64,000 bases of DNA from Dehalococcoidia bacterium (GTDB lineage: Bacteria; Chloroflexota; Dehalococcoidia; GIF9; UBA5629). The stretch is from assembly GCA_050011565.1 (NCBI GenBank), contig JBEKIW010000004.1:60553-124552 (forward strand), read 5' to 3'. Below the pieces are notes generated by a model. That model was not told the origin of the DNA. It made no database searches and was given only the letters and a program-made list of their open reading frames with translations. Each line of letters begins with the position of its first letter. The first letter of the stretch is position 1. Below are positions 36,203 through 54,580 of the stretch, piece by piece. The translations under genes and the position numbers were made by a program.

Positions 36203-38092
36203 GTGAAAAAAGTTCTGTTCTTATTGTTTACCTGTCTCTTACTTGTAGCGATTGTACTTCCTGCCTGTAAGCCTGGTCCAGCAGTTACCGGGCCAGTAAT
36301 AAAGATAGGCGTCATCGGGCCGATGCAATATATACAGGGCGAGCATCACTGGTGGGGTGCTGAGATGGCTCGTGATGAAATAAATGCGGCAGGTGGTGTA
36401 AAGGTCCTCCCTGACCAGCCCCCGTATATGGTTGAGCTAATCAAAGCAGACTCCAATGAAATAAACAGCATTACCGATGCCTCCGCGGCCATGGAAAAGT
36501 TGATAACGGTAGACAAGGCACAATTTGTGGTCGGGGGCTTCAGGACGGAAGCTGTCTTCCCCATGCAGGAAGTCGCCATGGACAACAAGATAATTTTCAT
36601 GAATTGTGGCGCGGCTACACTTGCACTACAAACGCCGGTGTTGACGAATTATGACCGCTATAAGTACTACTTCAGAGTCACTCCATTCCAATCCGGCTAT
36701 CTAGTCCAGAATGTGTTAATGTCAATGTCAATGGCCGAAAAAATAATAAAAGAGGATACCGGGATACAAAGGCCGTTGAATGCTGCTGTCTTTACTGAAG
36801 GGGCGCAGTGGGCTGATGCCATAACGTCAATCATGCAATCGCTGATTCCTACGAAGCTGGGTATGAAAGTCGTTGGCACATGGAGACCATCGCCTACAGC
36901 CACAGATTGTAATGCCGAGATGGCAGCTATACAAGCTGCTAACACCGACATTATCGGTGAAGTTATATCCGGCCCGCTTGGTGTACCATATGCCAGGTCA
37001 TGGGGCGAGCTGAAAGTACCGGCAGCTTCAGTGGGCATTAACGTTGAGTCCCAGGCTTTCACCTTCTGGGAAGCGACTCAGCATTTCGGCAACTTGGAGA
37101 CTGGCCTGGTTACATTAGCTGAGAACACAGCGGTTACGCCGAAGACTGTCCCGTTCTACAATGCCTTTGTAGCGAAGACCGGACAGCCACCCATATATAC
37201 TGGTGCCGGCACTTACGATGCCGTCTATACCTTGGCAGAAGCCATAACCCGGGCAGGGACTCTGGATTCAGATGCCGTGGTTGCTGAGCTGGAAAAGACG
37301 GATAGAGTTGGGGCTGGGGCCCGCCTTGTATTTACGGGTATTGATGATCCGTCGAAGGATCCTCACGACGTGACCTACGGTCCCGGATTTTCAACGGGTA
37401 TCGCCGGGCAGTGGCAGGATGGAAAATTGGTAGGTGTCTGGCCGAACCCTAACTATGTCGGGTATGTTCCGAATGATGCCTGGAAAACGGTGTCATATGA
37501 GGGAATGGTTAAGTGGATACCACGCCCCGAGCTAATCGACAAGTTGAAGGCCGAGGCGGCTACGCAACCGGCGGCACCCCCAGCGGGAGAACAACCTGCA
37601 GCACCTCCGGCGGGAGAACAGCCGGCAGCACCTCCAGCAGCAGGATTAGCGACTTACACCAACACCGAGTATGGTTTCTCCGTTCAATATCCTGGTGACT
37701 GGGTAGCGCGACCAGAGCTCATCATTAAGCCTGAATTCCAAAAGGCTGCATACGGTGTATCTGGCTTTGTTCCAGGGTTTGTTGCTTATGCCTTTGCTAA
37801 TCCTCCGGAGGAGTCTAAAGATTGGATCGTTACGTCTTTCAAGGCGACAGGCAATACAATGCCTAAAGTGACCTCAGACATCAAACAGGAGACTCTGGCG
37901 GATGGTACTCAAGCTTACACGTATAAAGCAAGCTATGTATCTGCCACTGGATATGGGATAGAGTCGTACGTCCTCGATGCAGATAAGGGAACCACCCGGT
38001 TTCGTGTGAATGTATTTACTATACCTGATATGGCTCCTATGGATGAGGCGCTGGCTTCGCAAGTTGCTCACTCTTTGACCTTTACAAAGTAA
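36203..38092 (+). CDS. Liv-type ABC transporter substrate-binding lipoprotein fused to a Pro-rich linker and a PsbP-like C-terminal domain
   Basis: 629 aa. GTG start, lipobox LPACK. Residues 30-440 are a periplasmic-binding-protein type I (LivK family) fold. Residues 455-480 are PAGEQPAAP x3. The C-terminal 150 aa begin YTNTEYGFSVQYPGDWV (PsbP-like hallmark). Confidence 0.7.
   Translation: MKKVLFLLFTCLLLVAIVLPACKPGPAVTGPVIKIGVIGPMQYIQGEHHWWGAEMARDEINAAGGVKVLPDQPPYMVELIKADSNEINSITDASAAMEKLITVDKAQFVVGGFRTEAVFPMQEVAMDNKIIFMNCGAATLALQTPVLTNYDRYKYYFRVTPFQSGYLVQNVLMSMSMAEKIIKEDTGIQRPLNAAVFTEGAQWADAITSIMQSLIPTKLGMKVVGTWRPSPTATDCNAEMAAIQAANTDIIGEVISGPLGVPYARSWGELKVPAASVGINVESQAFTFWEATQHFGNLETGLVTLAENTAVTPKTVPFYNAFVAKTGQPPIYTGAGTYDAVYTLAEAITRAGTLDSDAVVAELEKTDRVGAGARLVFTGIDDPSKDPHDVTYGPGFSTGIAGQWQDGKLVGVWPNPNYVGYVPNDAWKTVSYEGMVKWIPRPELIDKLKAEAATQPAAPPAGEQPAAPPAGEQPAAPPAAGLATYTNTEYGFSVQYPGDWVARPELIIKPEFQKAAYGVSGFVPGFVAYAFANPPEESKDWIVTSFKATGNTMPKVTSDIKQETLADGTQAYTYKASYVSATGYGIESYVLDADKGTTRFRVNVFTIPDMAPMDEALASQVAHSLTFTK
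37571..37645 (+). repeat. 27-nt tandem repeat (about 2.7 copies) encoding the PAGEQPAAP linker
   Basis: GCGGCACCCCCAGCGGGAGAACAACCT / GCAGCACCTCCGGCGGGAGAACAGCCG / GCAGCACCTCCAGCAGCAGGA. Confidence 0.7.
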
Positions 38093-38234
38093 CCATTTTA
38101 AATATTAGCGAGACCCCAGGCCAACGCCTGGGGTCTCGCCAGAGGCTTATCAGACGAATTGCCGGTCGGCAGTTTTTGAGGACGGCAAGCCTAGATTGAG
38201 AATGTTATATGGCAAATTAGCAAAAGGAGATGCG

Positions 38235-38879
38235 ATGACGAACAAGACATACAAATTCGTAACAGTGTTAATGGTCATGCTGCTTGTTCTGGGTCTGGCC
38301 TTAGTGGCCTGCAAGGCACCGGCTGAAACAGTAACGCCACCGGCTCCACCCGAACAACAAGCGACGCCACCGGCTGAACAACAAGCGACGCCACCGGCTG
38401 AACAACCAGCTACACCGCCGGCTGCACACCAACTGACATATACAGCTAAAACATATACTAATAGCCAGTATGGCTTCTCAATCCAGTACCCAAAGGATTG
38501 GGTAGAGCGCCCCGAAATCGCCAATGGGAGCCTTATCATTGCCTTCGGTGTACCCGGGTTCGTTCCTGGCGTAAGTATGAGTGTACGTGATGCAAATGAA
38601 CCTATGACTGCCGATTGGGTCGTGGCAGCGAATACGGCTGAGGGGAACACGAAGGTTAAAGTTACGTCACCTCCGACAGAGACAACTCTGTTTGACGGCA
38701 CGCCGGCAGTTCAGTACGTATCGAAGTTTACGTCTGGACAATACGACATTGTTTCTTTTGCCACCAGCACAGACAAGAACGGCAAGCGGATTCGTGCCAC
38801 TGTATGGACTATAGACGCGTTCTCTCCTTACGATGAGGCACTGTTCTCTGAGATAGCACACACCTTGTCAGTTAAATAA
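38235..38879 (+). CDS. PsbP-like domain lipoprotein with a Pro-rich linker
   Basis: The start is more likely the ATG at 38235 (RBS AAAGGAGA) than the ORF-track 38196. Lipobox LALVACK, PPAEQQAT x3 linker, then YTNSQYGFSIQYPKDWVERPE... This is homologous to the C-terminal domain of the upstream SBP. Confidence 0.6.
   Translation: MTNKTYKFVTVLMVMLLVLGLALVACKAPAETVTPPAPPEQQATPPAEQQATPPAEQPATPPAAHQLTYTAKTYTNSQYGFSIQYPKDWVERPEIANGSLIIAFGVPGFVPGVSMSVRDANEPMTADWVVAANTAEGNTKVKVTSPPTETTLFDGTPAVQYVSKFTSGQYDIVSFATSTDKNGKRIRATVWTIDAFSPYDEALFSEIAHTLSVK
38333..38420 (+). repeat. 24-nt tandem repeat (about 3 copies) encoding the PPAEQQAT linker
   Basis: CCACCGGCTGAACAACAAGCGACG repeated, with minor variation. 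Confidence 0.7.
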
Positions 38880-39013
38880 GAAATCGTTTTAGTCCTGTAT
38901 GGAGGCTGCAGGCCGGTTACAGTCTGTAGTCTCCATGAAGGTTAGCGGAACAAGTATGCCGTTTGGTACCGTAGAGTTAGGCAAGTAAGATTGAAGGTTA
39001 GGTAAGATAAGAT

Positions 39014-39886
39014 ATGGTTGAAGGAATTATAGTTCAGACTCTGGTGAAAGGAAGTGTATATGCGCTCCTGGCTCTCGGTTTCGCCCTAATCTTTGGGGTA
39101 GCCCGGGTGCTACAGCTGTCGCATACCGCGTTTTACATGCTGGCAGCCTACGGGATATTTGCTTTCGCCAGCTTACTCGGTTGGAGTCCGATTGTGTCCA
39201 TTATCCTGTCTATAGTCATTACTACCGGGCTGGGGCTTCTGGTGTACAAGCTACTTATCGACCGTGTACGTGAGCACCACGTAACCGTGATGCTGATAAC
39301 CCTGGCTGTAGCCATGATGTTTCAGCAGATCATGATTATTGCCTTCTCAGGTCAATATCGTTCAGCGCCGGCTTTTGTCACAGGATACTGGGAAATACTC
39401 GGCGTAAAAGTCGTCTTCCAGAATTTGCTGGTATTTGCTGGTGCGGCGGTTGTTCTGCTCATCGTATGGGCGCTTTTGTCAAAGACAAGACTGGGTATTG
39501 CCATCAGGGCTACCGCTCAGGACACCGAAATTGCCAATCTAATGGGGATAAATGTCTCCACTATACTGTTCACGGTTATGGGTATTGCCGCGGCACTGGC
39601 CGCGGTTGCCGGCGTGCTGGTGGCTCCAACGTTGGTCCTTGAACCTGGTATGCTGTGGCCTCCATTCGTCATGGTCATGGCGATAATTACTCTGGGTGGT
39701 CTGGGAAGCGTCAAGGGAAGTGTCATCGGAGCTTTTATTCTGGCCCTGGTTGAAACCCTGGTTGTTTTCTTGCTGCCTACCGGTGCCTTTCTTAAGGGGG
39801 CCGCCGCCTTGCTGGTCATGGTGATAGTACTCATTGTAAGGCCTGAGGGTCTATTTGGCGTAGTTTTCGAAGAGGAGAGATTGTAA
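39014..39886 (+). CDS. branched-chain-amino-acid-type ABC transporter permease (LivH family)
   Basis: 290 aa with about 8 TM helices, LivH-like. Confidence 0.85.
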   Translation: MVEGIIVQTLVKGSVYALLALGFALIFGVARVLQLSHTAFYMLAAYGIFAFASLLGWSPIVSIILSIVITTGLGLLVYKLLIDRVREHHVTVMLITLAVAMMFQQIMIIAFSGQYRSAPAFVTGYWEILGVKVVFQNLLVFAGAAVVLLIVWALLSKTRLGIAIRATAQDTEIANLMGINVSTILFTVMGIAAALAAVAGVLVAPTLVLEPGMLWPPFVMVMAIITLGGLGSVKGSVIGAFILALVETLVVFLLPTGAFLKGAAALLVMVIVLIVRPEGLFGVVFEEERL

Positions 39887-39887
39887 A

Positions 39888-40937
39888 TTGCTAAGTAGAT
39901 TATTTAAAGATTTTCAGGGCGATGTAGTGGCCATACCGGGCAGGTTAATAGCTTTAATTTTCTTTGTGCTCTTGTTTCTAATTCCTGCATTTACACAGCA
40001 GCCTTACATACTGCGTATGCTGATTTTTACGAATATGTTCGTTATCTTCGCCGTAAGCTGGGATTTTATATCCGGCTATACCGGCCAGTTGAACTTCGGT
40101 CATGCCCTCTTCTTCGGGGTGGCCGCCTACACGACAGCTTTGCTGAACAGGGGAGGCGACCTGGGCCCGCACTGGCCAATATGGGTAACCATACCGCTGG
40201 GTGCCATTGCAGCGGTAATAGCCGGCGTTGTCATGTGTTTGCCGGCATTGAGGTTGAGGGGACCCTATCTGGCTCTGGTAACCCTGGCGTTTCCACTTAT
40301 TCTTCTCGGGGTTATTTTCTCTTTTACCAAGTTTACCGGTGGTGAGTTAGGAATTTCCGGTATTGACCGCATTTCCGATTCCAGAACAGTAGAGTACTAC
40401 ATCTCAGTGCTCGTCATGATCGTCTCGGTATTCATAATGTGGAAGCTTACGGATGCCCAGAGCGGCCTGGTCAGGACAGGGATTATTCTTCATGCTATAC
40501 GCGAGGATGAAATTGCAGCTCGCGCCAGCGGAATAAATACAATACGATATAAGCTGTTCGCCTTTGCTGTAGGCGGCTTCTTCGCCGGAATAGCAGGCGG
40601 CTTTTATGCGCACTTCCTGAGAATTGCCGGTCCTTCCTCCCTGGACCTTACATTGTCGTTCCAAGCCATAATATGGACTGTTTTCGGAGGTATTGTTAGC
40701 ATTTACGGGGCGGTGGTGGGGGTTTATATACTTTATCCTCTGATGGAGTCCCTGCGTTCTATCTCGGAGTACCGGATGTTAATCTTTGCCGTCATAGTGA
40801 TACTGATTCTTCTTTTCATGCCTGAAGGCATTGCCGTCTGGATACGGGACAAGATTGAGAGACAATGTCCACGTTGCAAGCTGACTAATGTGTCATGGCG
40901 TCATACCTGTAGAGCTTGCAGCGCTGACCTGTACTAG
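39888..40937 (+). CDS. ABC transporter permease (LivM family) with a C-terminal CxxC..CxxC tail
   Basis: 349 aa polytopic. Last 30 aa: CPRCKLTNVSWRHTCRACSADLY. Confidence 0.85.
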   Translation: MLSRLFKDFQGDVVAIPGRLIALIFFVLLFLIPAFTQQPYILRMLIFTNMFVIFAVSWDFISGYTGQLNFGHALFFGVAAYTTALLNRGGDLGPHWPIWVTIPLGAIAAVIAGVVMCLPALRLRGPYLALVTLAFPLILLGVIFSFTKFTGGELGISGIDRISDSRTVEYYISVLVMIVSVFIMWKLTDAQSGLVRTGIILHAIREDEIAARASGINTIRYKLFAFAVGGFFAGIAGGFYAHFLRIAGPSSLDLTLSFQAIIWTVFGGIVSIYGAVVGVYILYPLMESLRSISEYRMLIFAVIVILILLFMPEGIAVWIRDKIERQCPRCKLTNVSWRHTCRACSADLY

Positions 40938-40989: not shown

Positions 40990-41739
40990 CTAGAGGCCGA
41001 GATACGTCTTTCTGATAGTTTCGTCTTTGAGCAACTCTGCAGCTGTTCCTTGGGCGATGATATGGCCTCTTGACATAACGTAATTTCTTACTGAGAGGCT
41101 AAAAGCGAAACTGACATCTTGTTCAGCCAGTAAAATAGTAACACCCAGTTCGCGGTAAATCTCTTCTACACGTTTAAACAGGTCCTGCTTTAATTTTGGT
41201 GCCAGGCCGCTTGAGGGTTCGTCAACCATCATGAACTTAGGGCGACGCATCAACGACCTGCCAATAGCCAGCATTTGACGTTCACCGCCGGATAGTGTTC
41301 CCGATATTTGATTCTGTCGTTCTTTCAGTCTGGGAAAGAGCTCATAGACCTTTTCCATGCTACTATTAATTGCCTTCTGGTCCTTGACAAGATAAGCGCC
41401 GGCCAGCAGGTTATCTTTAACCGTCATTTCAACAAATGGCCTGCCTCGCTCCGGGCAAAGGAGCAGACCTCTTTTGGCTATATCAGATGCCGACAGATTT
41501 TCAATCCTCTCACCCTCGAACTCTATAATCCCATCGAAGGTTATATCAGCCTGTCTGGTTCCTTTTGAGACCTCTTTCTCCCACTTTATTAATCCTGCCA
41601 TAGCCCTGAGTAAGGTGCTCTTTCCGGCACCGTTGGGGCCGACAAGGCTCACCAATTCGCCTTTTTCTACATTAAGGCTGGCGTCATCCAGCACCGTGGC
41701 CGTGTCGTAACGGACGGTTACGTTTTTAACTTCCAGCAA
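40990..41739 (-). CDS. ABC transporter ATP-binding protein (LivF family)
   Basis: Walker A GPNGAGKST, signature LSGGERQ, Walker B MMVDEPS. Confidence 0.85.
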   Translation of the reverse strand: MLEVKNVTVRYDTATVLDDASLNVEKGELVSLVGPNGAGKSTLLRAMAGLIKWEKEVSKGTRQADITFDGIIEFEGERIENLSASDIAKRGLLLCPERGRPFVEMTVKDNLLAGAYLVKDQKAINSSMEKVYELFPRLKERQNQISGTLSGGERQMLAIGRSLMRRPKFMMVDEPSSGLAPKLKQDLFKRVEEIYRELGVTILLAEQDVSFAFSLSVRNYVMSRGHIIAQGTAAELLKDETIRKTYLGL

Positions 41740-42499
41740 TGAGCACCTCCTTACCTGTGTAAGCTTCGATTACTACGGGGTTTTTGGATATTTCTTCAGG
41801 TGTGCCTGTAGCGATGATTTCGCCAAAGCAAAGTACAATTACTCTGTCTACTATCTTCATCAGCTCACTAAGCTTGTGCTCTATGATAAGCATAGCCGGC
41901 CCTTCACTATGAAGCCGGCCGAATCTCCCGCCTTTGTGTAACCGTTTCATTGATTTGGCCACAAGCTCGGTTTCGGCTGGGTTCAATCCGCCGAAAGGCT
42001 CATCGAGGATAAGCAACTCCGGTTCGGTGGCAATAGCTCTGGCTACCTCCAGCCGCTTTAAATCCCCGTGTGCTAGAATAGAAGCCGGTTCTAGAGCCAT
42101 GTCGGCGATACCTACGAATTCCAAAGCGTCTCGTGCCTTTACCTCGACTCTTTTGACCCATTCGCCTCGCTTGGATATCCTCGGGCAGAGACAACCTACC
42201 ATAACGTTAGCTATGATAGGCAAATGGCGGAAAGGTTTTACTACCTGGAAAGTTCCCACCATACCTCTCTGGACAATATCCCACGATCGTTTTCTGGTTA
42301 TATCTTTGCCGTCAAGTATGACTTTTCCTGAATCCGGCCTCAATATGCCGAGTAAGCAGCGTATGAGTGTGGTCTTGCCCGAACCGTTTGGCCCAATCAG
42401 GCCGACGATTTCATCTCTTTCTATCTTGAAGCTCACATTATTAACAGCAGATAGACCGCCGAAGGTCTTGGTTAAATTTTCGACTTCTAGAAACGCCAT
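41726..42499 (-). CDS. ABC transporter ATP-binding protein (LivG family)
   Basis: Walker A GPNGSGKTT, Walker B LILDEPFGGLNP. Its start lies 7 nt after the upstream CoA ligase stop. Confidence 0.85.
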   Translation of the reverse strand: MAFLEVENLTKTFGGLSAVNNVSFKIERDEIVGLIGPNGSGKTTLIRCLLGILRPDSGKVILDGKDITRKRSWDIVQRGMVGTFQVVKPFRHLPIIANVMVGCLCPRISKRGEWVKRVEVKARDALEFVGIADMALEPASILAHGDLKRLEVARAIATEPELLILDEPFGGLNPAETELVAKSMKRLHKGGRFGRLHSEGPAMLIIEHKLSELMKIVDRVIVLCFGEIIATGTPEEISKNPVVIEAYTGKEVLIAGS

Positions 42500-42506
42500 T
42501 TTATAG

Positions 42507-44216
42507 CTACTCCTCTCTCAGCTCACGACGAGATACTTTGCCGACATCTGTTTTAGGCACCTCGCCTCTGAACTCGACGATTGTGGGACACTTATAATCA
42601 GCTAGCCTCTCCTGGCAATATTTCATGATATCCAGCTCTGATAGCTTCCCTCTGGCTTCTGTCTCGAGGACAACTACTGCTTTTACTTTCTCTCCAACCT
42701 CGGGGTCGGGAACTCCGATTACACCCGTCTCCTTGATTTGAGGATGAGCCGCCAGGACTTCTTCTACCTCCCTGGCATATACAATCTTGCCCTTGTGCTT
42801 AATCATATCACGTTTTCTGTCGTAGAAAAAGAAATAGCCGTCTTGATCCATTCTGCACAAGTCGCCGGTACGAAGCCAGATTTCACCGTCTATATTGACA
42901 AATGTTTCACTGGTTGCCTCCGGGTTTTTCCAGTATCCTTTGGCTACTTGTGGACCCTTTATTATAAGCTCGCCTATCTCGCCAACAGAAAGAAAATTGT
43001 TGCTATCGGGGTCGACTATGGCAGCCACGGTATTAGGTAGAGGTACACCGAAAGAGCCGACTTTTGTTTTGCCGAATGGGTTGACAATTCCCACAGAAGT
43101 TGTTTCAGTCATCCCCCAGCCCTCGTGGATTTTGGAGCCCGTCCTTTTCTCCCAGCCTTTAGCCGTGTCCTCAAGTAGGATGTCGGCGCCGGAGATAAGA
43201 ACTTTGACGCGCTTCCAATTGACTCTGTCGGTGCGGTGGTAATCTCGAAGATATTCATATAAGGCCGCCACGCTGTAGAAAATAGTTGCATGGTAAGTTT
43301 CCATGGCGTTGAGTAAGTCGTCAAGGTCGATGGTGGTGAATATCACCAGGGTGTATCCCTGCGCCAGACCACCCGCCACCAACACCGCCTGGCCATAGAT
43401 ATGATAGAAGGGCAAATAAGCTAAAATGGTTTCCTTGCCTTCTTGCGTAACATCGCCCCAGAAATTTGCGGCTATATGTTCGGATACGTTAATGTTTTCG
43501 TGGGTTATCATAACACCTTTGGGTAGTCCCGTTGTCCCTCCGGTGTAGGGAAGAGTTACCAGGTCCTCCTTATTGTTGAATTCGATTTTCGGTGGATTGG
43601 GTGGATATTTCTTAATCAAGTCTTTGAATAGATAGAATCCCTCTCTATGGTAGAGCTCGGCAGGCGGTGCTGCCATCTTCTGGTAGACGGCACGGAGTAC
43701 GCTGCTGCCCATGAACCTTTTCAGCCACGGTATATAATCGGCGATATTTACCAGGATGACCTTATCCAGCTTGACTTCTGCCCGTTCGACGTTATCATAG
43801 AGATTATCCTGGCAGATAATTATGGTGGCGCCGCTGTCTTCAATTTGATGTTTGATTTCGGGGCTGACATAGAAAGGACTGATGGCAGTTAAAATGGCTC
43901 CAGCCTTTAAAGCTCCGAAAAAGGCTATGATGAACTGGGGTGAGTTCAGAAGTAGTAAAGCGACTCTATCCCCCTTTTTAACTCCTAAGTCCTGGAGAGC
44001 TGTGGCGAATCTATCGACATGGTCTCTTAGCTCGCGGTAGCTCATCTTCCTGCCATAGAATATTACGGCAGTTCTATCCTTCCATTTGTCTGTGGCTTCG
44101 TTAAAGATGTCAACTGCGGACTTATCCGCCATTTTTATGTCCGCCGGCACCTCCGGGAGATAGAACTTCAGCCACGGTCTGGATTCGTATATTGCCTTGT
44201 TGGTATCGGCCGCCAT
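42507..44216 (-). CDS. AMP-dependent acyl-CoA synthetase/ligase
   Basis: AMP-binding motifs (YTGGTTGLPKGV, GWGMTE, TGD). The start is taken at the internal ATG (44214-44216), which has a perfect RBS AAAGGAGGAGGTGA. The ORF-track 5' extension MLYFAPNKGGGDI appears to be leader sequence. Confidence 0.85.
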   Translation of the reverse strand: MAADTNKAIYESRPWLKFYLPEVPADIKMADKSAVDIFNEATDKWKDRTAVIFYGRKMSYRELRDHVDRFATALQDLGVKKGDRVALLLLNSPQFIIAFFGALKAGAILTAISPFYVSPEIKHQIEDSGATIIICQDNLYDNVERAEVKLDKVILVNIADYIPWLKRFMGSSVLRAVYQKMAAPPAELYHREGFYLFKDLIKKYPPNPPKIEFNNKEDLVTLPYTGGTTGLPKGVMITHENINVSEHIAANFWGDVTQEGKETILAYLPFYHIYGQAVLVAGGLAQGYTLVIFTTIDLDDLLNAMETYHATIFYSVAALYEYLRDYHRTDRVNWKRVKVLISGADILLEDTAKGWEKRTGSKIHEGWGMTETTSVGIVNPFGKTKVGSFGVPLPNTVAAIVDPDSNNFLSVGEIGELIIKGPQVAKGYWKNPEATSETFVNIDGEIWLRTGDLCRMDQDGYFFFYDRKRDMIKHKGKIVYAREVEEVLAAHPQIKETGVIGVPDPEVGEKVKAVVVLETEARGKLSELDIMKYCQERLADYKCPTIVEFRGEVPKTDVGKVSRRELREE

Positions 44217-44500: not shown

Positions 44501-46333
44501 TTACAGCTCGTCCTCTCTCAATTCCCGCCTAGATACTTTGCCGACATCTGTCTTTGGCACTTCACCCCTGAACTCTACGATTCTGGGACATTTATAGTGC
44601 GCCATATGTTCCGCGCAATATTTCATGATTTCTTCTTCGGAGACTTTGCCTCTGGCGTCCGTCTCGAGGACGACGATGGCTTTGACTTTCTCTCCGACGT
44701 TTTTGTCGGGAACCCCGATTACACCCGCCTCTTTGACCAGTGGATGCGCTTTCAGTACCTCCTCCACCTCCCTGGCGAATACCGCCAGGCCCTTATATTT
44801 AATCATGTCACGTTTTCTATCGTAGAAAAAGAAATAGCCTTCTTTGTCCATTCTGGCCAGGTCGCCGGTTCGAAGCCATGTTTCGCCGCCGATTTTGACG
44901 AACATTTTCTTCGTCTCTTCCGGATTATGCCAGTATCCTGGGGATATTTGTGGACCCCTGACGGCAAGCTCGCCTATCTCGCCAACAGGCAGAAATTTGG
45001 TGCTTTCAGGACTGAGTATTCCAGCTACTGTGTTACACATGGGGACGCCGAAAGAACCGACCTTCGGCCTGCCGTATGGACTACCCATTCCAATAGAGCT
45101 AGTCTCAGTCATACCCCAGCCCTCATGTATTTTAGTATTTGTCCGTTTCTCCCAACCTATCGCCGTATCTTCAAGAAGGGCATCGGCGCCGGAGACGAGA
45201 ACTTTGAGGCGCTTCCAGTTAATTCTGTCCGTACGTTGATAATCTCTGAGGTACTCATACAAAGACGGGACGCTGAAGAAAATAGTTGCCTTGTAGCTTT
45301 CGATGGCATTTAAGATGTCGTCGAGGTCGGGGGTGGTGAATATCACCAGGGTGTAGCCCTGAGCCAGACCACCCAACATAATCACTGCCTGACCGTAGAT
45401 ATGGTAAAAGGGCAAATATGCCAGTATGGTCTCTTTGCCTTCCTGGACAATATTTCCCCAGAACTCTGAGCCTATGTACCTGGCTGCAGTGATATTATAG
45501 TGGGTTATCATAGCTCCTTTGGGAAGTCCTGTTGTGCCGCCGGTATAGGGCAGGGTTACCAGGTCCTCATGAATATTGAACTTGATTTTTGGCGGCTTGG
45601 GCGGATATTTCTTAATCAAGTCCTGTAATTGATAAATTCCTTCTCTTTCATATATCTCAGAAGGTGGTGCTGCCATCTTCTGGTATACAGCCCTGAGTAT
45701 GCTGCTGCCCAGGAACTTTTTTAGCCCGGGTAAATATTCTGCAATACTGGTCAGGATAACCTTATCCAGTTTGACTCCTGACCGTTCCACATTTTCATAA
45801 AGTATATCCTGGCAGACGATTATCCGGGCGCCGCTGTCTTCAATTTGATGTTTGATTTCGGGACTAACATAAACAGGACTGATGGCAGTCAGTATAGCTC
45901 CAGCCTTCAGGGCGCCGAAATAGGCTATGATGAATTGAGGTGAGTTCAGGAGCAGTAAAGCAACCCTATCACCTTTTTTGACTCCCAGGTCCTGCAAGGC
46001 TGTGGCGAATCTATCGACGTGGTCTCTTAATTCGCGGTAGCTTATTTTTCTACCGTAGAATATTACGGCGGTCCTATCCTTCCATTTAGTTGTAGCTTCA
46101 TCGAAGGTTTCGACTGCGGATTTTTCCGGTATTTTGACATCCGCGGGCACCTCTTTGAGGTAAAACTTCAGCCATGGTCTTTTTTCATATATTGCCTTGT
46201 TTGGGTCAGCCTTTGGAGCAGCTTTCTTTACTTGAGCTTTCTTTAGTTGAGCTTTCTTTAGTTGAGCTTTCTTTAGTTGAGCTTTCTTTGGGTGAGCCTT
46301 CTTTGGGTGGGACTTCTTTGGGTGAGCCTTCAT
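44501..46333 (-). CDS. AMP-dependent acyl-CoA synthetase/ligase with a lysine-rich N-terminal repeat tail
   Basis: Paralog of 42507..44216, about 75% identical by eye. The start is taken at ATG 46331-46333, preceded by TTAGGAGGAGACGACACA. The N-terminus is MKAHPKKSHPKKAHPKKAQLKKAQLKKAQLKKAQVKKAAPK. Confidence 0.8.
   Translation of the reverse strand: MKAHPKKSHPKKAHPKKAQLKKAQLKKAQLKKAQVKKAAPKADPNKAIYEKRPWLKFYLKEVPADVKIPEKSAVETFDEATTKWKDRTAVIFYGRKISYRELRDHVDRFATALQDLGVKKGDRVALLLLNSPQFIIAYFGALKAGAILTAISPVYVSPEIKHQIEDSGARIIVCQDILYENVERSGVKLDKVILTSIAEYLPGLKKFLGSSILRAVYQKMAAPPSEIYEREGIYQLQDLIKKYPPKPPKIKFNIHEDLVTLPYTGGTTGLPKGAMITHYNITAARYIGSEFWGNIVQEGKETILAYLPFYHIYGQAVIMLGGLAQGYTLVIFTTPDLDDILNAIESYKATIFFSVPSLYEYLRDYQRTDRINWKRLKVLVSGADALLEDTAIGWEKRTNTKIHEGWGMTETSSIGMGSPYGRPKVGSFGVPMCNTVAGILSPESTKFLPVGEIGELAVRGPQISPGYWHNPEETKKMFVKIGGETWLRTGDLARMDKEGYFFFYDRKRDMIKYKGLAVFAREVEEVLKAHPLVKEAGVIGVPDKNVGEKVKAIVVLETDARGKVSEEEIMKYCAEHMAHYKCPRIVEFRGEVPKTDVGKVSRRELREDEL
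46221..46333. repeat. 15-nt tandem DNA repeat (about 7 copies) encoding the K-K-A-(Q/H)-(L/P) tail
   Basis: GCTTTCTTTAGTTGA x3, then GCTTTCTTTGGGTGA / GCCTTCTTTGGGTGG / GACTTCTTTGGGTGA. Confidence 0.7.
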
Positions 46334-46365
46334 TGTGTCGTCTCCTCCTAATTTGCTAAGCGTCA

Positions 46366-46376
46366 AGTATAACACA
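46366..46376 (-). promoter_or_regulatory. extended -10 promoter element TGtTATACT for CoA ligase paralog 2
   Basis: Minus strand reads TGTGTTATACTTGAC... followed by the RBS and ATG, matching the architecture of the leader at 44217-44260. Confidence 0.35.
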
Positions 46377-46580
46377 TTATACTCGTATTTTGCTACTGTG
46401 TATGAAGTGCTGGTTATGCTGTTTTTAAGTCCGGAATATCCGGTTTATTGCCACGCAGGCTCTGGAATTGATAAAATACGCTACTATAGATGATTGCGGC
46501 TTAAATTAGCAGGTAATACCTGGCGCCGTTCACAATATAATCAGATGGGTTCGTCAAACATTAACCACAAGGAGGCTCGA

Positions 46581-47078
46581 GTGAGAAACAATAAAAAACA
46601 TTGGTTTCTGCTTTTGGGACTTATCGTCCTGCTGCTCAGTTCTGTCGTCGGTTGTGGTCAGCCGGGATTCACGGCATATACCAATGATTTGGGAGGGTAT
46701 AGTATTAGTTATCCGCTCAGTTGGAAGGGCGAGGTTTCTAAAGACGGGACAACATTCCTAATAGCATCTCCGACCCGCGTGGCTTCGGTCATGATATATG
46801 TAGCAGATTCCATGTCAGCTCAAACTGCTGCCCAACGTTGGCTTATGTCATTGGGAACACATTGGTCTGAAATAGCTCAAATAGAAAATAAACCAATGGA
46901 AGGCTTCTGGAACTGGTATGTTTCATATGACTATAATGCGGATACTGGCCCGTTTCACGGAGAGGCTTACTTCAAGAGCACTGCAGACCACCTCTATAGA
47001 TTGGATACGGCAGCAGATTCGGCTGGATACAAGAATTATCCCTTCTCTATGATAATCTCATCATTTAAGCTGAAGTGA
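46581..47078 (+). CDS. PsbP-like domain lipoprotein (third paralog)
   Basis: Probable GTG start at 46581 after GGAGG. Lipobox VVGCGQ. YTNDLGGYSISYPLSWKGEV... is homologous to the domains at 38235..38879 and the SBP C-terminus. Confidence 0.55.
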   Translation: MRNNKKHWFLLLGLIVLLLSSVVGCGQPGFTAYTNDLGGYSISYPLSWKGEVSKDGTTFLIASPTRVASVMIYVADSMSAQTAAQRWLMSLGTHWSEIAQIENKPMEGFWNWYVSYDYNADTGPFHGEAYFKSTADHLYRLDTAADSAGYKNYPFSMIISSFKLK

Positions 47079-48264: not shown

Positions 48265-49107
48265 AAATGGGTTAGTTCATTTGTAGAACTCTATTATTTC
48301 TCCTCTCCTAGGTTAATCTTTAGAGAAATTACTGATGAGCCACCCCATCGTCTGTTGGCGACTTACGTAACTGAAACATTTGTACACAACCCAAGTGTTC
48401 TAAACGCCTGTTTTATAGAAACAGATTATTCTCACCTTTACTTCCTTGCATTGATAAACTCGTCACTTTTGTCTGAATATTTTTATCGAACAAGTCCAAA
48501 GTCGGGCAAGGGACTATTTCCGAAAGTATTAGTCGAAGACATTAGGAGATTTCCCATACGCCGCGTCTCCTTTACCACACTTCGTGAACGGCGTGAGGCA
48601 TTGGTCGGTCAAGGCCGCCAGCTTTACGAGGTAGATCCGTCAAGCGTAGTCGCGTTCGTGGAAGAGCGTCTTTCCGCTCAACCGGAAGAATCAGATGTGG
48701 TGCATGACCTGCTGGCTTTCCTGGCGGAGGAGATGATACGGCTCAACAAAGAGAAGCAGTCCAGGATTAAAGTGTTTTTATCCTGGCTTGAGAAGGAGAT
48801 ACTGAAAGGCTCCGTTGAAGACCAGAAGAACAAGACAAAGATAAAGGACTTCTATAACAATACCTTTGAGGATTTGCTGGATGTGCTTAAGAAAAATAAG
48901 ATTATCCCGGACCCGTGCCCGTCCAACATACGGGACATTATAGCCAGTGAATTTTCGGCGGCTGTGAATGCCCTTACTCCACTAAAGACTCGAATCAAAG
49001 TAACCGATGACCTCATTGACCAGATAGTCTATAGACTCTACAGCCTTACCGATGATGAAATATCCATCGTGGAAGGCAGTATTACCACGACAACTCGAAC
49101 AAAATGA
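48265..49107 (+). pseudogene. fragment of a type IIG restriction-modification / BREX PglX-like protein (C-terminal TaqI_C-like specificity region only)
   Basis: The translation (..PRLIFREITDEPPHRLLATYVTETFVHNPSVLNACF...FLALINSSLLSEYFYR...FPKVLVEDIRRFPI...) resembles the C-terminal specificity region of gamma-class N6-adenine methyltransferase / type IIG enzymes. The reading frame is closed by TAA at 48262, there is no ATG, and the N-terminal methyltransferase domain is absent. Upstream is 590 nt of AT-rich non-coding DNA. Confidence 0.5.
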
Positions 49108-50468: not shown

Positions 50469-51719
50469 TCAGGCCTGGCTGTCCTTTTTCAGGATATAGT
50501 CCCGGACAATTTTAAGAGATGCTTCAACCAGCTCCGGTTCAATAGATTCAGGGACATCATCCGGTGTGTGATACACGAGGTCCTCACCGAATTTTCCGAT
50601 ATCAAAGCTAATACCCGCCATATTGATGGCTTCAACGCCGAGCTTGCCGAATTCAGCGGCATCCGTGCTGCCGGCACCGAAGGGCATAGAGGCGATTCGG
50701 GCGGGATAACCCAGCGATTTAGCAGTATCCACACAATCCTGCGCCATGGCACGGGACAGCCTCACGGTTGAATTCAGGTCTTTGTCCAGAAAAGTGAGGT
50801 CTTTGAGCTTGTAAAGCGTGTCGATATTAAAGACATAGGTCTTGGTGTTCAGCAATTCTTGGCCGTGTTTATTACAGAAGGCACGCGCGCCGCGGAGCCC
50901 GGCTTCCTCGGCATCGAAAGAGGCTACTATTAAGCGGGTGTGACGCAGAGGATTTTTGCCCGCTTTTTTAGCCTGATGGAATAGCCGGGCCGTCTCGCCG
51001 GCAACGGCTACGGCAATCATGTCATCGCCGGCAGCGGGAGATACCTCTCCCGTGGTGAAGAAGGCCAGCGGCAGCTGGAAAATGCCGCCGACCATCAGGG
51101 CCACAGGTACCCAGAGTAGGATCCCGTCGGGAACAGGGACTTGAAACAAGGCCAGCACGATCCAAATCAGCGAGACGAGGAAGCCGAGCAGCAAAAACAG
51201 TATGCCGGCGTTGATTAGCCTGGCATAGTATTTCGGGGCATAAGCCAGTAGCTGAAAGACATAGGCGGCGTCATGATGGGCGCTGACCACGACCTGCTGC
51301 TTTACCTCGCCTTCAGGTTCGATAGAGCCGTAGACGTTGTAGCCGGTGGCTTTGGGGAAATAGGGGTCGAGCAATTCCCAGTAGCGGACAAACTGGGCAT
51401 AAAACATGAAGATTGCCAGGCCGTAGACGACAAGCGCCGTCAGCGGGAGCCCGAAATATAATAGAACAGCGCCGGCAAAATAAAGGACGACGAGGGCGGG
51501 GATATATTTCAGGAAGCTCTTAGGGTGGACCGTGAAATCTTCCACGTGCACCGAGCCCGGGTCACAGTGCTTAATGAATTCCTGTTTTATGCGGTCGGCG
51601 GCATTTTTACAGGCTTCCGTTCCAGCCAGGCGGTTGGGGTAGTTCTGAACGACTTCATCGGTGAAGTTGAAGACTCGACGGACGTGGGTTTTGGTTATGT
51701 TCAGGCTGCGGGTTTTCAT
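50469..51719 (-). CDS. M28-family zinc peptidase with membrane-spanning insert
   Basis: 416 aa. SAHHDAAY and DAEEAGLRGA metal-binding motifs. A central block of TM helices is present. Confidence 0.65.
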   Translation of the reverse strand: MKTRSLNITKTHVRRVFNFTDEVVQNYPNRLAGTEACKNAADRIKQEFIKHCDPGSVHVEDFTVHPKSFLKYIPALVVLYFAGAVLLYFGLPLTALVVYGLAIFMFYAQFVRYWELLDPYFPKATGYNVYGSIEPEGEVKQQVVVSAHHDAAYVFQLLAYAPKYYARLINAGILFLLLGFLVSLIWIVLALFQVPVPDGILLWVPVALMVGGIFQLPLAFFTTGEVSPAAGDDMIAVAVAGETARLFHQAKKAGKNPLRHTRLIVASFDAEEAGLRGARAFCNKHGQELLNTKTYVFNIDTLYKLKDLTFLDKDLNSTVRLSRAMAQDCVDTAKSLGYPARIASMPFGAGSTDAAEFGKLGVEAINMAGISFDIGKFGEDLVYHTPDDVPESIEPELVEASLKIVRDYILKKDSQA

Positions 51720-51767
51720 GGCGTTGTCTGCTGCCTATGTTAAGGCGCAGGTGGATGGTTGTCAACT

Positions 51768-51875
51768 GGAAATCCCCCTTTATCCCCCTTTTTCAAAGGG
51801 GGAAATAGGCTTCTCCCTTTCCTAAAGGGAGATTGAGAGGGATTTTACCTTCTTACAAATCCCCCTTTATCCGCT
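51768..51875. repeat. structured intergenic repeat element, copy A (one full unit of about 77 nt plus a partial unit)
   Basis: AATCCCCCTTTATCCCCCTTTTTCAAAGGGGGAAATAGGCTTCTCCCTTTCCTAAAGGGAGATTGAGAGGGATTTTA, then CAAATCCCCCTTTATCC. Nested palindromes: CCCCCTTT/AAAGGGGG, TCTCCCTTT/AAAGGGAGA, outer AATCCC/GGGATT. Confidence 0.65.
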
Positions 51876-52024
51876 CGAGCGCATTTCCGTTATTTTTGAC
51901 ACTTTACTGAATAGGTTGTACCATTCTCTGCCCAATGATATGTATTTCCAACGACCGAGCGAGTCAAGATTCGGATGGCTTTCAGCTATTCGACCTTTCG
52001 CGAAGTCTATTTTAAGGAGGACTA

Positions 52025-52801
52025 ATGAAGCGTTATAAATACCTGTTATTGTGTCTAACTATTGTCGTGTCTATTGTCTCACTGGGTGGTTGTCTTGTAT
52101 CATCCTCTACTCAGTCTGAAATCCAACTACCAACCCCAAGCAGTACACCGGCGATGCCGCAGATTGGGGCACTGGTTACCTTGCCCAGCTTTGCCGATTT
52201 GACGGATACCGTTAAGCGTTCGGTGGTAGCCATTGACACCGAGACCGTTGTTACCAGAAGATATATTCAGCGCACTATCCCGGGTGCCGGCTCGGGATGG
52301 ATAATCGATGAAAGCGGCATCATCGTAACCAATAATCATGTAATCGAAGGTGCACAAACTATTACGGTGGAACTGGAAAACGGTAAGACGTACACTCCAG
52401 TAAGCATCAAAACTGACCCCGATTCCGATATAGCGATACTTAAGATTAATGCCGGGAAGCTACCGGCTCTCAAAGTTGGTGATGCCTCGAAGCTGAGGGT
52501 TGGGGATTGGGTGGTAGCGGTAGGAAACGCGCTGGGAATGGGCATAAGTGTTAAAGACGGTATCGTCAGTCGTCTCGGCGTGAGCATTCAAATATCTCCA
52601 AGTGAAACGTATTCCAATCTAATTGAAACCAATGCCGCAATTAATCCCGGCAACAGCGGCGGTCCGCTGGTCAACCTGGCGGGAGAGGTAATCGGCATAA
52701 CCAGCCTGAAACTCGCTATTGGCGGCGTCGAAGGGATGGGATATGCCATAAATATAGAAGATGCGCTGCCGGTGATTCAGAGGCTATTCAAATCAATTTA
52801 G
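52025..52801 (+). CDS. secreted trypsin-like serine protease (S1C/HtrA-like, no PDZ domain), lipoprotein
   Basis: 258 aa. Lipobox LGGC. His (TNNHV), Asp (DIAILK) and Ser (GNSGGPLVN) catalytic triad motifs. Confidence 0.8.
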   Translation: MKRYKYLLLCLTIVVSIVSLGGCLVSSSTQSEIQLPTPSSTPAMPQIGALVTLPSFADLTDTVKRSVVAIDTETVVTRRYIQRTIPGAGSGWIIDESGIIVTNNHVIEGAQTITVELENGKTYTPVSIKTDPDSDIAILKINAGKLPALKVGDASKLRVGDWVVAVGNALGMGISVKDGIVSRLGVSIQISPSETYSNLIETNAAINPGNSGGPLVNLAGEVIGITSLKLAIGGVEGMGYAINIEDALPVIQRLFKSI

Positions 52802-52886
52802 TTTACCCGCTTAAATAGAAGCGATGATTTATGATTCTTGCTAATTGTGGTAAATTTTAGGCTGAATGAAATCAAAGGAGGGCTAT

Positions 52887-53084
52887 ATGGCGGCAAAAAG
52901 TGAATATCAACGGCAGCTAACTATTCTTTTAATATCTTTTCTGGCAGGCTATTTCGGTCTGGACCGTTTCTACCGGGGAGAAATAGCACTGGGCGTTATT
53001 AAGATGATAACATGTGGCGGCCTTGGAGTGTGGTATTTAGTGGATGTAGCTATTGCTGCCTATCAATTTGGAAAGCTTGACTAA
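52887..53084 (+). CDS. TM2-domain small membrane protein
   Basis: FGLDRFYRGEIALGVIKMITCGGLGVWYLVD matches the TM2 domain signature. The start is likely the ATG at 52887 after AAGGAGGG (the ORF track begins at 52866). Confidence 0.6.
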   Translation: MAAKSEYQRQLTILLISFLAGYFGLDRFYRGEIALGVIKMITCGGLGVWYLVDVAIAAYQFGKLD

Positions 53085-53110
53085 TCCCGAAGCTAACCGT
53101 TAAATTAAGG

Positions 53111-53138
53111 CCTTTTCACCTGAGGGCAGGTGACAGCT
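53111..53138 (+). terminator. hairpin after the TM2 gene
   Basis: TCACCTG-AGGG-CAGGTGA. 7-bp stem with no clear U-tract, so it is weak. Confidence 0.25.
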
Positions 53139-53143
53139 AGAGC

Positions 53144-53289
53144 AAAAATCCCCCTTAATCCCCCTTTTTCTAAGGGGGAGACGAAGAATAAAAGTTAGAA
53201 GTAGGGATTTAAGATCCCCCTTAACCCCCCTTTTCCAAAGGGGGAAATAGACCTCTCCCTTTCGTAAAGGGAGATTGAGAGGGATTTTA
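53144..53289. repeat. structured intergenic repeat element, copy B (a diverged partial unit plus one full unit)
   Basis: ...AAAATCCCCCTTAATCCCCCTTTTTCTAAGGGGGAG...TAGGGATTTAAG ATCCCCCTTAACCCCCCTTTTCCAAAGGGGGAAATAGACCTCTCCCTTTCGTAAAGGGAGATTGAGAGGGATTTTA. The full unit is about 90% identical to copy A. Confidence 0.65.
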
Positions 53290-53290
53290 G

Positions 53291-54580
53291 CTACATTGCC
53301 GGGTTCGTGACGTGTCCGAGAAATAAGATCGCCCCTGTTTGAATGTCCCGAATTAGAAAGATAAAGGGGCGGTCAATGGTCACATCAACAACGTTCAATT
53401 GTAACGATGTGGTTGTCATAACAACCGCCGTAGCGGCGGCTGCCTCCGTGCCGACTTCGTCGACAGAAACAAATGCCTTATGAATCACGTCCGATATGTA
53501 TAGATCGCGCTTGCCGTCCATGCCTGAAAAATCAGCGTTCTCGGTAAAAGCCACCGGCATACCCATAGCACTGAGGGCTTTCTTCAGGCTGAAGTCGGAG
53601 GAGAATTCGTATTTGGGCATAGTCAACACGACTCGCTTGGAAGCTAAGCTGGCAATAATTCCGTCGACCTTACCGGCATCCAGAGACCTTTCAAACGTAG
53701 TGAACTGGCCGGGCTGAGGCAGCAGAATCACCATGGAAAGCTCGCTTCCGTCATAGGGCAATTCCACCGCCTGATAATCATCACCTTCTGCATAGGCAAA
53801 CGATTTTGTCTGTTTCATCATTGGCACGGTGACTTCACTGCCGGAGAGCAAGTGAAAGGTGCCATCGGCGGTGGCATCTTTCTCGAAGGGGAACTGCCAG
53901 GCGGCGTTGAAGTAGATGGCGTTGGTCAGGACCAGGCGGGTCATGGCGTCGATAGCGCCCGGTGGAATCAGGTCTTTAATCCTGCCTTCCGTCTGGTCGC
54001 TTACCCAGTCGTTAATAGTGACGCGCGATGGTTCAGGTGCGTTTATGAAATCGAGCGTTCTGATGCCGGCGCCGTAGTTCTCAGCCAGGATATCGAGGAA
54101 CTCCTGGAGAAAGGCGTAGCCCTTTTGTCCCCAGATGGCATTTACGATATTGAGTCTGAAGCCTTTCTCATCCTTGCCTTTGGCGCCCTGGCCACGCTGG
54201 CTTAGTTCTATATCCAGGCTATTGAGCGCCGGGTGAAGCAGTTCCTGCGGCAGAGTATAGTGGAGCGTGTTTGCCATTTGCTGCGCCGTATCGCCGCGGG
54301 CGCCGGCATAGGTCATAGCCAGTGCCAGCGAAATGCTGTAGGGTGAAAAGAAAACGTTTTCATCTCCTTTGATTTGTTGATAGGCGTCAAAGGCAAATGC
54401 GTTGTTGCCGTTTACCAGCGCGGCCAGGTCAGCCTGACTGGCGACTGGAGAAGTTATTCTTTGCTTATCCGATTTTACTGTCTGGCTTACCGGCTGCGCA
54501 CCAGGCGGCACGATACAGGCTGAACTGCCAATCAACATCATAGCAACTAAAATAACCGAAACCAGCAAATTGTTTTTCAT
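53291..54580 (-). CDS. serpin (serine protease inhibitor), lipoprotein
   Basis: 429 aa. Lipobox GSSAC. Serpin core motifs (FNAAWQFPF; hinge EVGTEAAAATAVVM typical of inhibitory serpins; C-terminal PFIFLIRD). Confidence 0.8.
   Translation of the reverse strand: MKNNLLVSVILVAMMLIGSSACIVPPGAQPVSQTVKSDKQRITSPVASQADLAALVNGNNAFAFDAYQQIKGDENVFFSPYSISLALAMTYAGARGDTAQQMANTLHYTLPQELLHPALNSLDIELSQRGQGAKGKDEKGFRLNIVNAIWGQKGYAFLQEFLDILAENYGAGIRTLDFINAPEPSRVTINDWVSDQTEGRIKDLIPPGAIDAMTRLVLTNAIYFNAAWQFPFEKDATADGTFHLLSGSEVTVPMMKQTKSFAYAEGDDYQAVELPYDGSELSMVILLPQPGQFTTFERSLDAGKVDGIIASLASKRVVLTMPKYEFSSDFSLKKALSAMGMPVAFTENADFSGMDGKRDLYISDVIHKAFVSVDEVGTEAAAATAVVMTTTSLQLNVVDVTIDRPFIFLIRDIQTGAILFLGHVTNPAM

Follow-up and report, generated by a model that had tools for sequence, protein, structure and literature searches.

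A lysine-rich pentad-repeat tail of variable length on one of two tandem FadD-like ligases in Dehalococcoidia

The tail-bearing ligase and its repeat

The window considered here, by which the whole analysed stretch of 64,000 nucleotides (nt) is meant, comes from a Dehalococcoidia bacterium (assembly GCA_050011565.1, contig JBEKIW010000004.1, positions 60,553 to 124,552 of the forward strand) and carries two adjacent genes for FadD-like coenzyme A (CoA) ligases, of which one, paralog 2, opens with a lysine-rich tail encoded by a 15-nt tandem repeat. The N-terminus of this protein reads MKAHPKKSHPKKAHPKKAQLKKAQLKKAQLKKAQVKKAAPK, the very peptide that the first-pass annotation of the window had given, and its tail comprises eight 15-nt units with a net charge of +16. 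The tail-bearing ligase is the most basic protein of the window, where the median isoelectric point (pI) is 6.3, and NCBI annotation MGD0353454.1 is the identical product of 610 amino acids (aa) with the same start. The adjacent paralog 1 lacks the tail, as had been noted before, and begins directly with the ligase's own N-terminus (Table 1).

The host protein is an AMP-forming acyl-CoA ligase of the ANL superfamily. Pfam AMP-binding (PF00501) covers residues 77-468 (1.5e-88, 297.6 bits against a cut-off of 29.9), AMP-binding_C (PF13193) scores 70.3 bits (cut-off 24.5), and the closest relative of solved structure is FadD-1 of A. fulgidus (3g7s), with FadD13 (3r44) also matched at E=9e-55. The translation contains YTGGTTGLPKG, which we take to be the canonical ANL P-loop (TGGTTGxPKG), and VPKTDVGKVSRRELRE, presumably the C-terminal motif of the catalytic lysine (PKTxxGK); their columns are invariant in 68 homologs. 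The NCBIfam models for long-chain-fatty-acid--CoA ligase match from residue 44 onwards, and since all 25 listed equivalog matches fall under their cut-offs (the best, NF006181, at 466.7 bits against 705), the protein is described as a FadD-like ligase to which no substrate is assigned. The tail itself lies outside all family models, those of Pfam beginning at residue 77 and those of NCBIfam at residue 44.

Codons 2-41 (46330-46211) spell, in frame, KAHPK KSHPK KAHPK KAQLK KAQLK KAQLK KAQVK KAAPK, and the native sequence ADPNKAIYEKRPW follows directly after the eighth unit. Tandem Repeats Finder reports an array at 46220-46335 with a period of 15, 7.7 copies, 91% matches, and a score of 127, and within it a core of 5.7 copies with 94% matches and a score of 142; the earlier count of about seven copies agrees with this and with the eight lysine-bracketed units plus their seed. 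The identity of three units across 45 nt is far above chance.

The start of translation can be placed with the help of paralog 1. When the two ligase genes are aligned at their 5' ends through the putative -10 hexamer, AGGAGG, and ATG, the tail appears as one block inserted right after the first codons, and it sits between the conserved ATG with its Shine-Dalgarno (SD) sequence and the conserved start of the enzyme, NKAIYExRPW. After the ATG, the next in-frame ATG, GTG, or TTG is a GTG at codon 62, in keeping with the earlier statement that neither an ATG nor a ribosome-binding site follows the repeat, and residues Y49, R52, P53, and W54, invariant in 68 homologs, all precede this codon. A downstream translation start was therefore rejected, the first alternative falling past invariant residues and the ATG and SD sequence aligning with those of paralog 1. 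The tails of orthologs tell the same story in that all of the roughly 60 distinct ones keep the frame and contain no stop codon. Two further readings of the repeat DNA were set aside: an antisense open reading frame (ORF) at 46174-46359 (61 aa, ELSLV repeats) mirrors the repeat and nothing was found in its support, and stalling or frameshifting on a poly(A) track would have to act on runs of A that reach 3 nt at most within the tail.

Table 1. Features of the two ligase genes, the repeat, and the adjoining transporter genes, in window coordinates
Feature	Position	Strand	Remarks
Tail-bearing ligase, coding sequence (paralog 2)	44501-46333	minus	ORF; 610 aa, net charge +21, pI 9.3
ATG start	46333-46331	minus	Aligns with the paralog 1 ATG
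Shine-Dalgarno sequence AGGAGG	46349-46344	minus	10-nt spacer to ATG; homologous to the paralog 1 AGGAGG; same in L001-L003
Putative -10 hexamer TATACT	46366-46371	minus	Placed by alignment to the paralog 1 TATACT; promoter scan made no independent call
Units 1-3, KAHPK KSHPK KAHPK (xHPKK type)	46286-46330	minus	xHPKK is the commonest ortholog unit type
Units 4-6, three identical AAAGCTCAACTAAAG (KAQLK)	46241-46285	minus	Absent from L001-L003; site of the 60-nt indel
Units 7-8, KAQVK KAAPK	46211-46240	minus	L001/L002 counterparts KAQVK and KADPK
Native N-terminal pentad ADPNK, presumed repeat seed	46196-46210	minus	GCTGACCCAAACAAG
Tail-less paralog 1	42507-44216	minus	569 aa, net charge -8, pI 5.9; 78% identical to the tail-bearing ligase; starts MAADTNKAIYE
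LivG-like and LivF-like ATP-binding cassette (ABC) ATPases	40990-42499	minus	Pfam ABC_tran, BCA_ABC_TP_C; downstream of both ligases
Peripla_BP_6 binding protein (629 aa), 227-aa lipoprotein, two BPD_transp_2 (Liv) permeases	36203-40937	plus	Pfam; synteny in L002

Copy-number variation and descent of the tail

The tail is a regular feature of the nearest relatives of this ligase, and its length is not. All 35 of the closest database proteins (85-98% identity, from metagenome-assembled genomes (MAGs) of Dehalococcoidia) carry N-terminal KKxxx pentads and range from 581 to 619 aa in 5-aa steps; homologs under about 88% identity are 569-571 aa long and start MTADPNKAKYE. Across species-representative genomes and metagenome loci, orthologs hold between 1 and 15 units, with 13 in L004 and 15 in L091, and the named sources are all Dehalococcoidales, Dehalococcoidia, or Chloroflexota MAGs. 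Locus L001, whose DNA matches that of the window at about 96% identity along 5 kb, has 4 units where the window has 8, the difference being a clean in-register 60-nt indel with nearly identical flanks. Clusters of at least 90% identity likewise hold several tail lengths, for example 586, 591, and 606 aa. Alleles that are near-identical thus differ by whole units in register, as expected of a coding tandem repeat with variable copy number, and the variability that the first-pass annotation had expected of such a repeat is present in fact. Unit number changes fast and in 15-nt steps, as replication slippage or unequal exchange would produce, and either may be the mechanism at work. As the unit is a multiple of three, slippage alters the length of the tail and not the expression state of the gene; a phase-variable contingency locus, in which slippage of units not divisible by three or of repeats within a promoter would switch expression, was rejected on the grounds that the unit is divisible by three and all of the roughly 60 variants are in frame.

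In neighbour-joining trees of the catalytic cores, the tail-bearing proteins form one clade of about 60 distinct orthologs with 2-15 units, within which a single tail-less pair (L088/P0260) is nested, and the tail persists although the cores have diverged by about 15%. Because one clade shares the tail while the number of units differs among close relatives, the trait is old and its length labile. The earlier suggestion of a recent expansion thereby divides into two parts. It stands for the three identical KAQLK units, which, judged by their sequence, are the latest expansion, and it fails for the tail as a trait, which is shared by the whole clade of about 60 sequences with diverged units and with basic positions that look selected.

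The native N-terminus of the enzyme offers a candidate source for the repeat. The native pentad, GCTGACCCAAACAAG, and the unit GCTCACCCAAAGAAG are identical at 13 of 15 nt; read as codons, GCT GAC CCA AAC AAG and GCT CAC CCA AAG AAG differ at 2 of 15 positions. Close tail-less relatives start M-K-A-D-P-N-K (in L006, ATG AAG GCT GAC CCA AAC AAG), and there are short-tailed forms that resemble intermediates, namely MKADTKKIDSKKPDTNK (P0025), MKTDTKKITSKKPDKNK, and MKADPKKAHSKK... (P0250). Taken together, these sequences suggest that the tail was born by tandem duplication of the ligase's own codons 2-6 (K-A-D-P-N), followed by replacement of N by K and of D by H, A, or Q.

Apparent selection on the charge of tail and core

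Conservation within the tail is confined to the positions that carry charge. Across 132 pentads from 27 tails, counted in a fixed register, K makes up 94% of column 1 and 91% of column 5, where R accounts for another 5%, and the inner columns 2-4 vary (A/T/S, H/E/A/Q/D/L, and P/S/L, respectively), the central position being P in 60 pentads, S in 42, and L in 16. Lysine is encoded by AAG 150 times and by AAA 69 times and is replaced mostly by R (13 cases), with E in 3; in the tails listed, acidic residues stand mostly within the last one or two units, beside the native end. Units differ synonymously both within and between genes (GCT/GCC/GCA/GCG, CTA/CTG/TTA, AAG/AAA). In pairwise comparison, admitting only units with K, R, or Q at both basic positions, the second basic column has synonymous differences in 50% of the pairs and amino-acid differences in none, and at the inner columns 67-92% of pairs differ in amino acid. 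On these counts, the basic positions look to be kept by selection while codons and inner residues turn over.

The folded part of the enzyme has shifted in charge as well. Core charge was computed from the RPW motif onward and amounts to a net +5.3 +/- 1.6 in tail-bearing cores (n=34, range +2 to +8, mean pI 8.6) against -5.5 +/- 1.9 in sister cores (n=31, range -9 to -1), with no overlap between the two groups; 49 more homologs average -9.0. Seventeen alignment columns explain +8.6 of the difference, among them those with recurrent replacement of E by K (positions 67, 251, 480, and 497), with N, A, or P giving way to K (246, 528, and 544), and with loss of D (294, 441, and 482). Close tail-less outgroups have cores of -4 to +1, the nested tail-less pair has +1 and +2, and paralog 1 has a net charge of -6 to -10 in all genomes examined. 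Compensation between tail and core charge was rejected, the correlation between the two being positive. Slippage cannot explain a change in the folded core, and the shift suggests that the tail-bearing paralog has been under selection for being a polycation. It also lends indirect support to the association with membranes or nucleic acids that the first-pass annotation had put forward as a possibility.

These observations bear on the possibility that the tail is a tolerated by-product of slippage, a 15-nt repeat that expands and contracts neutrally and confers general solubility at most. Such neutrality would sit well with the wide range in unit number, which is found even inside clusters of at least 90% identity, with at least one loss nested in the clade and close tail-less relatives that are apparently functional, and with the consideration that an essential enzyme downstream would enforce frame and freedom from stop codons anyway. 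It is nonetheless improbable, given that the basic columns are more than 90% K/R with turnover between AAA and AAG, that the inner columns are free and replacements are mostly R or Q with E nearly absent, that the tail has been kept across the core divergence mentioned above, and that the core has moved by about 11 charge units in parallel.

A role in the messenger RNA (mRNA) rather than in the protein can be weighed on the same evidence. An A-rich, weakly structured repeat right behind the start codon might keep the ribosome-binding region open and so raise translation; for the segment between -30 and +60, the folding energy is -9.6 kcal/mol in the tailed gene against -16.1 in paralog 1, and the G+C content is 43% in the tail against 48% in the gene body. 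Both folds, however, lie within the range of dinucleotide shuffles (z = +0.97 for the tailed gene and +0.52 for paralog 1), one or two units would suffice for the purpose, and both the retention of K under synonymous codon change and the shift in core charge would go unexplained, all of which makes this role very improbable. There is little doubt that the tail is real, translated, charge-selected, and variable in copy number.

Gene neighbourhood

The tail-bearing ligase, the tail-less ligase, LivG, and LivF follow one another in this order on one strand, an arrangement kept in L001 and L002. Paralog 1, directly downstream of the tail-bearing ligase, has its own SD sequence and a promoter-like site, TTGGCA-17-TATACT. 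The divergent side carries, besides the genes listed in Table 1, a thiolase and a ChsH2-OB/zinc-ribbon protein, and just past this pair lies a third AMP-binding ligase (31368-32966; 532 aa), which is acidic and tail-less. No other lysine-rich segment was found in 1.9 Mb of Dehalococcoidia loci, mostly of the same neighbourhood.

Only two further tandem arrays occur in the window (37565-37638 and 38352-38432), each of them within the transporter cluster. One is a 27-nt repeat that codes for QPAAPPAGE three times in a linker within the 629-aa binding protein, the other a 24-nt repeat that codes for EQQATPPA three times past the lipoprotein signal of the 227-aa ORF. The binding protein ends in an extra C-terminal domain (about 150 aa, 37640-38092), which shares 46% identity with the 227-aa lipoprotein (38196-38879; E=8e-36), and a divergent lipoprotein beside the tail-bearing ligase (46494-47078) weakly shares the start YTNxxxG[FY]SIxYPxxW (E=1e-4). 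For this family of extracytoplasmic domains, Pfam gives only a weak PsbP_2 hint.

Upstream of the tail-bearing ligase, the intergenic sequence 46334-46460 is almost invariant relative to L001-L003 although the coding DNA is 90-96% identical, which suggests shared regulatory sites of divergent promoters; a hairpin-like element, CCGG-ATATT-CCGG, is found at 46431-46443. Further along, past a CBS gene, 48355-49107 holds a fragment with TaqI_C-like and Ydc2-like matches, and the syntenic place in L002 (1-8040) holds a complete type I restriction-modification system and a Fic protein, so that the region looks like a variable defence islet. A bacterial serpin locus occupies 50469-54580, with the serpin (429 aa, E=7.5e-119) adjoining a trypsin-like peptidase and an M28 peptidase.

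Predicted structure of the tail

AlphaFold2, run on a 68-sequence alignment, predicts residues 1-39 with a predicted local distance difference test score (pLDDT) below 50 and assigns to the QL units a helix that is nominal and of low confidence. The model is consistent with a tail that would act as a disordered polycationic tether.

Disorder is at odds with a fold that the period of five brings to mind, the small right-handed quadrilateral beta-helix of pentapeptide repeats (A[D/N]LXX), into which the AQLKK units might be fitted. In a search of 1.84 billion representatives with the tail alone, HMMER returned 104 matches, mostly pentapeptide-repeat proteins and assorted lysine-repeat proteins, with no other ligase among them, and the L004 tail, with 12 A-x-L-x-K units, scores 46.1 bits on PF00805, above the cut-off of 20.2. 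The window tail, by comparison, does not match PF00805 even at E<=10 and has just four A-Q-L/V-K-K units, equal to one coil; in the pentads counted above the central position is far more often P or S than L, the predicted confidence is low, and with two lysines in each unit, stacking would bring like charges together. A beta-helix is rejected for the window tail, for which it is hardly conceivable. The tail of L004 (L004:4054-4260), like those of L085 and L086, consists of 12-13 units of K-A-[ST]-L-[KR], and given its PF00805 score, the tail of this lineage might form a highly basic beta-helix.

Proposed function

After the duplication that gave rise to the tandem pair, one ligase copy would have been reshaped into a strong polycation, reaching +21 in the window, and its tail would serve as a flexible electrostatic tether, tunable in length, that binds the enzyme to a polyanionic surface in the cell. 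The proposed target is the cytoplasmic membrane, whose inner face is anionic, at the place of the Liv-type ABC importer encoded in the same cluster. There, the tail-bearing ligase would thioesterify organic or fatty acids after their import, with the acidic, tail-less paralog 1 working in the cytosol. The membrane is favoured as target because this class of enzymes acts at membranes through positive surfaces, because the gene lies in an uptake cluster, and because the split into an acidic and a basic paralog suggests sorting; both M. tuberculosis FadD13 (PMC8253482) and yeast Faa1 (PMC10993510) are acyl-CoA synthetases recruited to membranes through positive surfaces. As a target, the membrane is possible rather than probable. 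The explanation as a whole, a charge-selected disordered tail acting as a membrane-favouring electrostatic tether, is nearly balanced between belief and doubt, with doubt slightly ahead. The more detailed scenario, that a self-seeded tether together with the core charge reversal puts one ligase copy either at the membrane beside the importer, where CoA activation would be coupled to transport, or on the nucleoid, is rather unlikely in its entirety.

The main rival assigns the tail to nucleic acids or the nucleoid, with lysine pentads of the H1/Hc2 type by which the ligase would be tethered to, or co-condense with, DNA, RNA, or ribosomes. The pentamers of Hc2 are alike in combining two positive residues with three of A, V, T, or P and in varying in number between strains (PMC2848022), the tails of several orthologs match Pfam HC2 below its threshold of 40 bits (L091 at 35 bits, L005 at 21.6, and L004 at 19.6), and lysine repeats on Streptomyces TopA stabilise the complex of that enzyme with DNA (PMC5714199). 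Any disordered tail of +16 would, moreover, bind nucleic acids in vitro, and the basic core fits this reading equally well. The host enzyme, on the other hand, has no known role with nucleic acids, the gene stands in an uptake and thiolase cluster, the window tail has no match to HC2 (PF07382) even at E<=10, and the known bacterial H1-like tails occur on proteins that are DNA-related or, as AlgP, granule-associated. Attachment to nucleic acids is on this evidence unlikely.

Charge could also serve to hold the enzyme to a protein or to polyphosphate, through a charge-complementary heterodimer with the acidic paralog 1, another acidic partner, or polyphosphate granules. In every tandem pair examined, the upstream copy is near-neutral or basic (-2 to +7) and the downstream copy acidic (-6 to -10), and the H1-like protein AlgP has been connected with how polyphosphate granules are spaced (PMC9239181). 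Nothing points to heterodimerisation, however, the charge of paralog 1 is the same in genomes with and without the tail, and no polyphosphate genes were seen in the cluster, which leaves a tether of this kind quite improbable.

Several points weigh against the electrostatic membrane tether itself. The target surface is reasoned from charge and gene context, and a hydrophobic anchor is missing from the tail. Nor is the tail essential, as it has been lost at least once within the clade and the close outgroups are tail-less, and its range of 2-15 units disfavours a precise structural role. LivG and LivF are slightly basic (+3 each), which makes direct electrostatic docking on these ATPases unlikely, and the pentad architecture is that of the DNA-binding Hc2 (PMC2848022), so that nucleic-acid binding fits at least as well as the membrane. 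As for the evidence of selection, the filter applied in the unit-pair comparison renders the conservation figure obtained there partly circular (the column count of the 132 pentads is unfiltered), and the column statistics overstate sample size because repeat units undergo concerted evolution and are non-independent. The association of the tail with core charge is essentially one evolutionary event and one reversal, unreplicated, and the correlation between tail and core charge is a Spearman rho of 0.37 with phylogeny ignored.

The interest of the case lies partly in its host, lysine-rich repeat tails in bacteria being known mainly from nucleoid and DNA-handling proteins and a FadD-like ligase being an unusual bearer, and partly in three further aspects that are out of the ordinary: the copy number differs between near-identical strains, the charge looks selected, and the charge of the core has shifted in step. 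If the electrostatic tether is real, it would be a simple case of paralogs sorted inside a bacterial cell through charge alone, a compact and datable instance in which a functional disordered region arose de novo out of codons that the gene already had, and a hint of how uncultured Dehalococcoidia link the activation of organic acids with their import. Should the tail be neutral, its natural series of 1 to 15 units would show how much N-terminal polycation an enzyme tolerates.

Comparison with known systems

Close in sequence architecture is the chlamydial histone H1-like protein Hc2 (HctB, PF07382), which shares with the ligase tail consecutive pentamers of two basic and three small residues (A/V/T/P), an even spacing of charge, and a strain-variable number of in-frame repeats (PMC2848022). 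Hc2 is, however, a stand-alone nucleoid protein made up almost entirely of repeats with 36-aa super-elements, whereas in the ligase the pentads stand at the N-terminus of a metabolic enzyme, and as the ligase tail was presumably seeded from the ligase's own codons, the two would have no common ancestry. Topoisomerase I (TopA) of actinobacteria provides a precedent for an enzyme with lysine repeats whose length varies with lineage and which act as an electrostatic clamp to a polyanion (PMC5714199), a clamp that is predicted for the ligase; in TopA, the repeats are C-terminal, have another unit sequence, and belong to a DNA enzyme whose substrate is the polyanion. Lysine-rich low-complexity repeats also serve as localisation or tethering modules in AlgP (KPAA repeats) and Streptomyces DdbA (PMC9239181, PMC3643593), and DdbA resembles the ligase further in that an H1-like domain is fused to another functional domain (PMC3643593). 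Their unit sequences differ from that of the tail, their hosts are related to DNA or polyphosphate, and none is an ANL-family ligase.

From the side of the enzyme, the nearest parallels are M. tuberculosis FadD13 and yeast Faa1, members of the same superfamily and peripheral membrane enzymes recruited by positive charge (PMC8253482, PMC10993510); the folded core of the tail-bearing ligase is basic too. In contrast to the structured surface patch of these proteins, the ligase would use a disordered tandem-repeat tail, and its membrane binding is putative. Pentapeptide repeat proteins (PF00805) resemble the tail in their period of five and in the A at i-2 and L at i of the AQLKK units, and they differ from the tail in that its units are too few in the window, the central residue is mostly proline or serine across the clade, and disorder is predicted. 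A literature search returned no paper joining acyl-CoA synthetase with 'lysine-rich' and 'N-terminal extension', and none joining Dehalococcoidia with 'lysine-rich'. The type of sequence is a known one, and what is new is its ligase host, its apparently self-seeded origin, and the charge reversal of the core that accompanies it.

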